Source: Squatina squatina (taxonomy: Eukaryota). Taken from it: DNA of 34,160 nucleotides. Of this stretch, positions 24,923-34,130 are shown piece after piece. The stretch's first letter is position 1; each line of letters begins with the position of its first letter. Below the pieces are notes generated by a model that was not told where the DNA came from, did not search any database, and saw only the letters and a program-made list of their open reading frames with translations. The position numbers were made by a program, and so were the translations under genes. The stretch lies in contig JARFOE010000001.1 of assembly GCA_031763465.1 (NCBI GenBank), positions 8,248,407 through 8,282,566 on the forward strand. The letters run 5' to 3'.

Positions 24923-25000
24923 ATGAGCGATGAAGCCCAGAAAAATGATGGTGGTGATAAGTACAATGGCAACAATCAGAAGCGAAAGAGACCTAAAAAG
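24923..25000 (+). CDS. ANK2: Ankyrin-B, canonical first coding exon
   Basis: MSDEAQKNDGGDKYNGNNQKRKRPKK versus recalled human [28 protein letters not shown]. In-frame TAG at 24914-24916 upstream, A at -3, and a phase 0 donor AAG|GTAAGA at 25001. Confidence 0.95.
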
Positions 25001-28825: not shown

Positions 28826-28951
28826 ATGGCTCATGCTGCAGCTCACCTTAAAAAAGCCCGGGAGTTTGATCATGACGAGAAGGAGAAGGAGAAGGAAAAG
28901 GAAAGGGAAAGAGAGAGGAAGAGGGAATCGAGGAGAAATCGTAAACGCAAG
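28826..28951 (+). CDS. ANK2: Ankyrin-B, alternative first coding exon (MAHAA-type, paralogous to the ANK3 MAHAASQLKK exon)
   Basis: MAHAAAHLKKAREFDHDEKEKEKEKERERERKRESRRNRKRK (42 aa). Kozak ggtATGG, upstream in-frame TGA at 28781-28783, and a phase 0 donor AAG|GTACGC at 28952, in frame with exon 2. Confidence 0.9.
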
Positions 28952-29349
28952 GTACGCCACCTCACCAAAAATATNNNNNNNNNNNNNNNNNNNNNNNNNN
29001 NNNNNNNNNNNNNNNNNNNNNNNNNNNNNNNNNNNNNNNNNNNNNNNNNNNNNNNNNNNNNNNNNNNNNNNNNNACTAGCCCTGTATTTTACGCTCCAGG
29101 CCACTATTTACATACATAGCTTGCCTGGTGGGTGTAAAAATAGCCAGGCAGTGCCTGAATTGGGAATGGTTGGAGTTTGCTGCCAACTGTGTGGGGTTTC
29201 TAGTTCTTTCAGAGTTGGGTGGCCAGCAGTGACTGTGAGGAGTGGTTTAGGGCAGCAGAGCGGCAGTGACCATCTGGATTACTTGTGTTTGTTTGGAGAG
29301 CCTGGTGGCTGGAGTCCTTCACACGGGTAACTGTTGACAGGGGACTGCT

Positions 29350-29475
29350 ATGGGCAATGCACCACTTTGCCATTCTTGTCATACAGACAAGGGTATTCAG
29401 AGGAGTACGGAGTGTCAGAACATAGAAACATACACTGACTATTACACTGATATAAGCAAAGAACCCGAGGCACTG
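29350..29475 (+). CDS. ANK2: Candidate third alternative first coding exon of ankyrin-B (MG-/Cys-containing N-terminus)
   Basis: MGNAPLCHSCHTDKGIQRSTECQNIETYTDYYTDISKEPEAL (42 codons, no stop). Strong Kozak gctATGG, in-frame TGA at 29335-29337 upstream, and a consensus donor CTG|GTGAGT at 29476 in phase 0, compatible with exon 2. No homolog confidently recognised. Confidence 0.6.
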
Positions 29476-30464
29476 GTGAGTCTTGTGTGAATGAAATCTG
29501 AAGTGTCACGTTTAAAGAATGACCCTGCTATATAGAATGTGAAGTTGAATTAAATAAATTACACCTGACTCTTAGAGACTGATGCTGTAACCTGCTATAG
29601 CAGGGGAATGGTGCTGTGGAGGTGTTTGTAGGAAGCTTGTCTCACTTTGCTGTGACAGCTTCTGTGATTATAGAGTTATTTGGTTTCNNNNNNNNNNNNN
29701 NNNNNNNNNNNNNNNNNNNNNNNNNNNNNNNNNNNNNNNNNNNNNNNNNNNNNNNNNNNNNNNNNNNNNNNNNNNNNNNNNNNNNNNTTCCTCTGGGTAT
29801 CATGTATAGAAAAATTTGTAAACACAAAACACAAAAAGGAGATCTTGCCATGATTGGGTGAAAGTTAAAACTCTGGGATGAGGACTGGGCTAAAAACAAA
29901 GAGTTTTATTTTTACATCATGTGCGAGTTTGGACAAGGGTGTCAAAGGTTATGCACTTGCTCGAGCATCACCACCAAGCCTAAATCTATCCAAAACTATA
30001 ATCATTACACTACCCGTACTAGTTTATTATCACTTTTTTCTTGATGCCTCCAGCAACTTCTGAATAAAAGTATTTGTTTCACATTGGTAAAAATCTAACA
30101 GCAGCATATCACATTTGAATTGGGCTTGTTTGCTTTGTTTGACTACATTTTGTGGGATGCAAGTCATATTCAACATGTGTTAAATATTCCAGTTTCATGT
30201 TCCTAATGGAATAATTTAGCATAGCAATGAATCTCTGAATGAAGTGAGGCTTGTTTGAGGTGATTTTTATCTTGCATCTCAGATGGAAAGAGTTAACAAG
30301 CTCCTTTTTGTTTTTCTATGCGCTGTTTCGCAGATGACCTCAGGCCAGTGTATTCGCGTTGTTTTAAGCCAATGCTTCACCATCATTAGTGATCAGTACT
30401 ATGCTTTTGACTTTGGAATGTTGCATAGGTCAAAGATACTTCTCTCTGCTATTTTTACTGCAGT

Positions 30465-31461: not shown

Positions 31462-31563
31462 TCTGACAGCAATGCAAGCTTCCTCCGTGCTGCGAGAGCA
31501 GGAAATCTGGATAAAGTGCTCGAGTACCTCAAAGGAGGGATAGACATCAACACATCAAATCAG
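31462..31563 (+). CDS. ANK2: Ankyrin-B exon 2 (start of ANK repeat 1)
   Basis: [34 protein letters not shown] versus recalled human ANK2 [34 protein letters not shown]. It is 102 nt, with acceptor tttctcttttgcAG, branch-like CTAAT at 31435-31439 and donor CAG|GTATGC. Confidence 0.97.
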
Positions 31564-32913: not shown

Positions 32914-34130
32914 NNNNNNNNNNGTGTCAAGTTTATACAATCACCAGGGAGTGTTTTTATTTTCTTAGCAGCATGAAACACAGGAGATGGGACTAGTTTA
33001 TGATTTCAGATTTTCTGAAAACTTTGCTACTTCCTCCTTCCCACAGAGATGCAGAAAATGCAAGAAAGTTCAAGAATAATCTGTGCTGCAGTCCAAATTC
33101 CTTTGCGAGAGCCACCAATGGAGGAACTTGGAATCACAATGCCCTTGCAGAGTCACAGGCTTGTTTGAAAATTGGTTCCAGTGAGCTCGTTGCACCCTTT
33201 CTTTATCTTCTCCCATCTTTTGATCTGACTTTGCCACATTCACTGTGGTTTTTCAGGCTGTTCTCACACATTTTGTGGTTTCCAGCCAGATACTCAGTCT
33301 GAGAAAAGCCTGTGAGTTCATGGCACAGTGAGTTTTAATAATATGGCAGGTGTGAGAGGTTCAAGGCAAGATCATGATTGGATTCTGGTCTCATGGCACT
33401 GCTGTCAGCTTCTCCCTTAGTGCACTCAATTTGCATTTGAAATTTTCAAGTGCATTTAGAAAGAGCCAAACTCCTGATCCAGAAATTAATGAACCATTCA
33501 CGCAGCTGAGTTCACAACTAGTGGGCAGAACTCAGCTTGATGCATTTACATGAGGCATACGTTCATTAACTCACCTCATTTCAGCCACGTTGTTTCAATC
33601 CCAAGGGTAAGATGCATTGAGACTGCCAATGAAAACTAACCTTCCATTTCTTTCATCACAGGTAACGCTTTTGGTTCTTTGGCTTTCAGTTGCGTTTTTT
33701 AAAAAGTTCTATTAGCCATTAGGAAAAGGGATTTCCCACCAGAGGCACAGAAAATGACATTGCAATTATTAGTTTAACTCTGAATCATAGATTTTTATAG
33801 TAGAGAACATTCATCCGATTATGACTGCACTGCCTCTCCGAAAGAGCTATCCACTTAATTTCATTTCCCTGCACTTTCCCCAGACCCTTTCATTGTTTTC
33901 TTTTTCAACTGAGGCTTATATGAGAAGGTGTCCAGTGTCCAATCAGTGCACAACAAGCACTCTTTGCTTAAACGTTTTTATGTGCACGACAAAAAATTGG
34001 TTAGGTCAAAATAAGACCATGTTGAAGGTTCTGTAGCTAGACATCCTGCCACGTTACAGTTTTGTTCAATTATATTTTTTAAAAGATTCTGATCTCTCTT
34101 TCCCCCTGCCGCCGCCCCCCCCCCCCCCAA

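Follow-up and report, generated by a model that had tools for sequence, protein, structure and literature searches.

An old alternative first exon of ANK2 in Squatina squatina encodes a candidate lipid-anchored N-terminus of ankyrin-B

Within the 34,160 nucleotides of Squatina squatina DNA analyzed here (contig JARFOE010000001.1, positions 8,248,407 to 8,282,566 of the forward strand; hereafter the window), the segment at 29350–29475 is, judged by comparison with its homologues, a genuine and old alternative first coding exon of ANK2, and its splicing to exon 2 is predicted in this species. We consider the exon real because it is conserved, with orthologous peptides joined to exon 2. It is not new to databases: the original prediction had left open whether it was annotated in other species, and it is already present in predicted isoforms of RefSeq and UniRef. 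For the first-exon product of 42–45 residues, we lean by a little towards N-myristoylation on Gly2, followed by likely S-palmitoylation on Cys7/Cys10. A lipid-anchor function of the exon is plausible and apparently undescribed.

The exon and its orthologues

The original prediction, made from the window alone, had described a 126-nt stop-free frame with a gctATGG start context, an in-frame TGA upstream and a phase-0 CTG/GTGAGT donor (slash, exon–intron boundary), placed between an exon of the MAHAA type and exon 2, and all of these features were confirmed in the sequence (Table 1). The donor is in phase with exon 2, all three exons being phase 0, and the upstream TGA pins the start in this species to the ATG at 29350. 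A scan of the window, which spans the 5' part of an ANK2 gene, for phase-0 ATG-to-donor frames returned four on the forward strand, which are included in Table 1, and two on the reverse strand.

Table 1. Coordinates of the ANK2 first exon and of neighboring features in the window
Feature	Position	Strand	Details
Further alternative first exon	24923–25000	+	26 aa, basic end; phase 0; donor AAG/GTAAGA
MAHAA-type alternative first exon, basic	28826–28951	+	Phase 0; purine-rich repeat coding for a Glu/Lys/Arg run; weaker donor AAG/GTACGC; duck ANK2 models such as P0139 begin with this type
Assembly gap	28975–29074		
MEF2-like site	29134–29143		One mismatch; about 210 bases 5' of the exon ATG
Upstream ORF	29166–29330		54 codons, out of frame, strong context; ends 20 bases 5' of the exon ATG
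In-frame TGA upstream of the ATG	29335–29337	+	Nearest in-frame stop, 15 bases 5' of the ATG
Kozak context	29344–29353	+	gctATGG; G at -3, G at +4
ANK2 alternative first exon, coding part	29350–29475	+	ATG at 29350–29352 opens 42 stop-free codons (42 aa); Met-Gly-Asn start, Cys7-x-x-Cys10, Lys14, Asp30-Tyr31-Tyr32
Splice donor GTGAGT, phase 0	29476–29481	+	Exon end CTG/GTGAGT; read-through homologues agree
Assembly gap	29688–29787		
ANK2 common exon 2, where ankyrin repeat 1 starts	31462–31563	+	Phase 0; acceptor ...TTTTGCAG/TCT
Ser codon (TCA) in exon 2	31555–31557		Position of ankyrin-B Cys60 / ankyrin-G Cys70
ATG-to-donor frame downstream of exon 2	33550–33606	+	19 aa; phase 0; likely chance

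The most upstream of the forward-strand frames is probably a first exon of the canonical ANK2 type, its product resembling what we take to be the canonical human ANK2 start. The upstream ORF at 29166–29330 could lower translation of a transcript that begins 5' of it. The MEF2-like site is putative. As the exon has an assembly gap on either side (the window contains 25 runs of N), the sequence may lack part of the promoter, and distances should be taken as approximate.

Our first protein search gave one match, the horn shark ankyrin-2b isoform X9 (XP_067895787.1); its N-terminal 42 residues agree with the window peptide at 34 of 42 positions (81% identity) and run directly into exon 2, bearing out the proposed assignment to an ANK2 first exon. 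With residues 1–60 of this protein as the query, 942 matches were found, and the best 120 of the 942 all carry the exon and come from the horn shark, the coelacanth and 17 birds. A profile of nine peptides, compared with 1.84 billion representatives, matched 44 sequences, of which 40 carry the exon and 4 are spurious, and the species include the sterlet (4168 aa), Daubenton's bat (3962 aa), the hedgehog and the gerbil. A mammal-type profile matched 298, and the named rows among the best 120 of the 298 are 32 carnivores, cetaceans, ruminants and camel. Human and mouse were absent from the best 120 of the 942 and the best 120 of the 298 matches, which is no evidence of their lacking the exon; among the matches listed, there were no primates, and no named row bore the name of ANK1 or ANK3.

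In total, spliced orthologous models are found in at least 55 named species of shark, sturgeon, coelacanth, birds and mammals and include 440-kDa forms; the exon is thus already machine-annotated. Together with ten CxxCG peptides that, from their sequence, look teleost-like, this distribution is broader than the one originally proposed. Examples of models with this N-terminus, all of them database predictions, are those of the horn shark (XP_067895787.1), coelacanth (XP_014347613.1), sterlet (RXM35185.1) and bat (XP_059551506.1). The predicted isoforms in RefSeq and UniRef have the same exon and the same junction to exon 2 as the window; they are automatic models, and we saw no functional annotation on them. 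RefSeq XP models are usually supported by RNA-seq. The exon is 42 codons long in the window and the horn shark, whereas it has 45 codons in tetrapods and the coelacanth.

Among the 335 proteins collected, 320 contain the motif. The filter demanded MGN and CxxC, and the 15 proteins that it discarded were the two other exons of the window, nine cluster members with other starts and four spurious matches; no version of this exon was lost. Of the 320 motif carriers, 275 run straight into exon 2, three of the exon-carrying proteins are giant forms, and 271 of the 275 spliced models have the Met at position 1. In unspliced homologues that read through the exon end, the sequence goes on as Val-Ser/Arg/Gly in 42 of 44 cases, the mark of a phase-0 GT donor. 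Both the MG..C..C pattern and the donor, which the original prediction had proposed to look for in orthologues, are conserved. Mean identity, computed over 15 distinct sequences, was 0.20 in the 15 residues preceding the Met and 0.63 in the 15 following it. Conservation thus begins at the Met, which is the pattern expected if position relative to the N-terminus matters.

A few homologues depart from the common arrangement. The RefSeq models of the hedgehog (P0190) and gerbil (P0191) join the exon to exon 2, yet are catalogued separately, as uncharacterized LOC genes. In another homologue (P0178), what follows the exon resembles neither exon 2 nor the usual read-through past a donor, and the exon is possibly spliced to another exon. 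One coelacanth ANK2 model (P0134) starts with a different first exon of the MASPT type, for which tblastn gave no match in the window.

Candidate acylation sites and the NMT consensus

We counted residues over 69 distinct orthologous peptides. Met1, Gly2 and Asn3 are present in all 69 and Ala4 in 68, and CxxC is likewise invariant, at positions 7/10 in 68 peptides and at 6/9 in one. Position 14 is Lys or Arg throughout (69/69), and DYY is kept in 65; three mammal-like homologues (P0197–P0199) retain MGN and CxxC and have lost DYY. At position 5, 39 peptides have Ala and 26 have Pro; at position 6, 64 have Leu, Ile, Val or Met. The ESM Atlas gave no usable match for the peptide, and Rfam gave none within the window.

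Myristate-plus-palmitate anchors are built in just this way: an invariant Gly2, a disordered tail, and cysteines that keep a constant, short spacing from the glycine. Cys7 and Cys10 lie within about ten residues of Gly2 in the N-terminus, and AlphaFold predicted no folded domain in the peptide (mean pLDDT 57, pTM 0.17), a low-confidence, unfolded result that is consistent with a disordered anchor. Under this reading, a separate promoter would start the transcript carrying the exon, the Met would be removed, and N-myristoyltransferase (NMT) would attach myristate to Gly2 during translation. The weak myristate anchor would deliver Cys7/Cys10 to a zDHHC enzyme and a stable, reversible anchor would result, the other ~30 residues forming a flexible spacer in which the conserved DYY may serve as a site of tyrosine-based regulation or binding. 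The isoform would reach membranes without prior binding to a membrane partner, a step normally blocked by the ankyrin-B linker, and, through the choice of exon, ankyrin-B would gain a membrane anchor of its own, N-terminal to the ankyrin repeats.

The consensus of NMT is absolute for Gly2 and has any of Ala, Asn, Cys, Gly and Ser at residue 5 and Cys, Ser or Thr at residue 6, Met being residue 1 (PMC4692089, available text). All 69 peptides have the Gly2, and their Asn3 means that position 3 is never Pro or aromatic; the window, with Pro5 and Leu6, lacks the combination of a small residue 5 and Ser, Thr or Cys at 6. The original prediction had correctly pointed to Leu6 as a departure and understated its extent: as Pro5 is off the consensus too, the fit in the window species is worse than had been said. 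A PROSITE-style NMT pattern fitted five of the 69 peptides. From its sequence, the exon product is a candidate NMT substrate only, and the preference at positions 5 and 6 has known exceptions.

These exceptions come from the supplements of Thinon 2014 (PMC4200515). LRRC57, which starts MGNSAL and thus shares MGN and Leu6 with the ANK2 exon, was negative in both predictors and yet 144-fold enriched, its labelling dropping to about 0.05 under an NMT inhibitor, and ABL1-1b, which shares Pro5, showed inhibitor-sensitive myristate labelling; the well-predicted GOLIM4 gave no inhibitor response (PMC4200515). Unlike the ANK2 exon, neither LRRC57 nor ABL1-1b combines Pro5 with Leu6, and neither has CxxC. 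Among the MGN-starting rows that we examined in supplement 2, Leu6 occurs in 1 of 18, Pro5 in 0 of 18 and the two together in none, so that the mammalian form is a better candidate than the form of sharks and birds. ANK2 had no matches in the six supplement files of the study, whose cell lines may not express the isoform.

Competing readings of the motif and of the exon

The main rival to the lipid anchor is a zinc-clasp role for CxxC. The exon would be real and Cys7-x-x-Cys10 would provide half of a zinc site, clasping a partner tail or a second ankyrin, or would act as a redox pair, in either case with or without myristate on Gly2; we find this fairly unlikely. The constant CxxC spacing of all 69 peptides, with a following His in 55 and Gly in 10, is a feature also typical of zinc knuckles, and Lck pairs acylation with a CD4 zinc clasp. 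A PDB search returned six matches, all at chance level, led by an HNH endonuclease matched at its CxxCH (E 0.36); in the low-confidence structure model, a bridge around the motif links residues 6 and 13. However, the second conserved Cys/His pair of a self-contained zinc finger or ribbon is absent from the exon, a later Cys occurring in 46 of 69 peptides and in neither the window species nor the horn shark; the site may instead be an intermolecular clasp. Pfam gave no match (0 of 9), and the cysteines keep a constant distance from Gly2 in 68 of 69 peptides, as expected for acylation beside a myristate. A predicted zinc-bridged homodimer scored 0.01 and 0.00 with the alignment unused and is evidence neither for nor against. 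The same motif could be read as haem-binding CxxCH and the isoform as a haem sensor, and four of the six weak PDB matches are c-type cytochromes (E 0.85–7.1). This is extremely unlikely: the His found in 55 peptides gives way to Gly, Gln or Ser in the other 14, among them all 10 teleost-like ones, the PDB matches do not rise above chance and, to our knowledge, covalent haem attachment does not happen in the cytosol. The haem reading was dropped for the variability of His11. Another account, which we judge unlikely, accepts the exon and has NMT reject it, with Gly2 free or acetylated as a stability signal (Gly/N-degron) and any membrane binding due to palmitoylation alone. The Pro5 and Leu6 of the window species and the low number of consensus fits speak for it, and proteins starting with Gly are also NatA substrates (PMC4692089, available text). 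On the other hand, the invariant Gly2-Asn3 is shared with many labelled substrates, as in the 18 MGN rows, LRRC57 indicates that Leu6 is tolerated after MGN, and where residue 6 is not aliphatic it is Thr, Ala or Cys (5/69), a shift toward the consensus.

The exon itself could be misread in two ways. If it were an internal cassette exon, or if translation started upstream, the Met-Gly would not be N-terminal. An in-frame AG at 29339–29340 offers a possible cryptic acceptor, and four of the 275 spliced models (three chicken, one seal) have an upstream extension; but the AG lacks a pyrimidine tract, the in-frame TGA lies just 5' of the ATG, the remaining models begin at this Met, and conservation falls off upstream, which makes such an arrangement very unlikely. 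A chance intronic ORF is of negligible probability. In 200 Markov simulations of the 28.8-kb upstream region, comparable patterns arose in 6 regions under a strict rule (Kozak-ATG-G-G, at least 20 open codons, G/GTRAG) and in 26 under a loose one (any ATG, at least 30 codons, G/GTRAGT), both rules having been picked after the exon had been seen; by the sequence itself, the exon pattern is just moderately unlikely by chance. It is the conservation, with the orthologous peptide joined to exon 2 across the named species, that refutes the chance reading.

Relation to known ankyrin lipidation and to ankyrin-B biology

The known palmitoylation sites of ankyrins are Cys70 of ankyrin-G (PMC3527982) and Cys60, 305, 347, 375 and 406 of ankyrin-B (PMC10098127), both cited from the available text. 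They have fatty acylation as a membrane route in common with the proposed function of the ANK2 exon, but are located within the repeat domain and occur in every isoform that includes this domain, whereas the exon site is isoform-specific and N-terminal and would include myristate. Numbered from exon 2, the seven repeat-domain cysteines of a falcon model are 32, 277, 319, 347, 378, 454 and 708, and these numbers plus 28 correspond exactly to the published Cys60, 305, 347, 375, 406, 482 and 736 (PMC10098127); residue 32 of exon 2 is therefore Cys60, the principal palmitoylation site, whose loss cuts ankyrin-B palmitoylation by 60% according to the same text. At this residue, 18 of 281 sequences have Ser, including the window, the horn shark and the coelacanth, and the other 263, including mammals and birds, have Cys. 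The shark and coelacanth Ser are exceptions to the statement, in the available text of PMC3527982, that this Cys is conserved across all vertebrate ankyrins. As birds and mammals have both the exon and the Cys, the exon is not a simple replacement for Cys60.

The choice of first exon as a lipid switch is known from ABL1, PDE2A3 and PSD-95 alpha. By analogy, the closest functional precedent appears to be HK1S, the sperm hexokinase-1, which, as described in the available text of PMC4736023, has an isoform-specific, non-consensus Met-Gly N-terminus with a nearby Cys, as the ANK2 exon does, and moves to the plasma membrane through myristoylation and palmitoylation. The HK1S anchor was shown by experiment and uses a single Cys5, whereas that of the ANK2 exon is predicted and has CxxC at 7/10, and the two sequences are unrelated (PMC4736023). 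Mouse Ank3 has five alternative first exons, some of them tissue-restricted, spliced to a common exon 2, and so resembles the ANK2 window in its several first exons leading to one exon 2; acylation is not mentioned in the available text of PMC4449188.

Our literature search, which most subscription papers lay beyond, found no description of the exon or of a myristoylated vertebrate ankyrin. Four seven-residue N-terminal motifs had no matches in the literature searched, "myristoylated ankyrin" referred only to engineered anti-HIV ankyrins, and the string "myrist" has no occurrence in PMC10098127, PMC12202978, PMC9386378, PMC3527982, PMC3663501 or PMC4449188; the available parts of PMC7048800 and bioRxiv 2022.02.10.479914 contain nothing altering our reading of the exon. 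As the ankyrin papers examined are silent on this N-terminus, such a pool of ankyrin-B could have been missed. With the exon already in databases and this kind of switch known, the surprise is limited.

An anchor of its own would matter to ankyrin-B because the protein is autoinhibited from plasma-membrane binding (PMC3663501, available text) and its dendritic membrane localization requires palmitoylation (PMC10098127, available text). We regard as doubtful the wider proposal that jawed vertebrates, probably humans too, make a myristoylated and palmitoylated ankyrin-B in 220-kDa and giant forms, which would anchor itself, bypass the linker autoinhibition, switch its CxxC from palmitate to a zinc clasp and back and be the main anchor in sharks and coelacanth without Cys60, and that variants in the exon are overlooked ANK2 heart and autism alleles. 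ANK2 being an arrhythmia and autism gene, the exon would be clinically relevant if intact in humans. Sharks and bony vertebrates split about 450 million years ago, and an exon with invariant Met-Gly-Asn and CxxC has been retained since. Ankyrin-B is a scaffold protein of heart and brain, and fatty-acid anchors, if true, would tie this isoform directly to membranes; how ankyrin-B gets to particular membranes is a question that a promoter-selected lipid anchor would then address.
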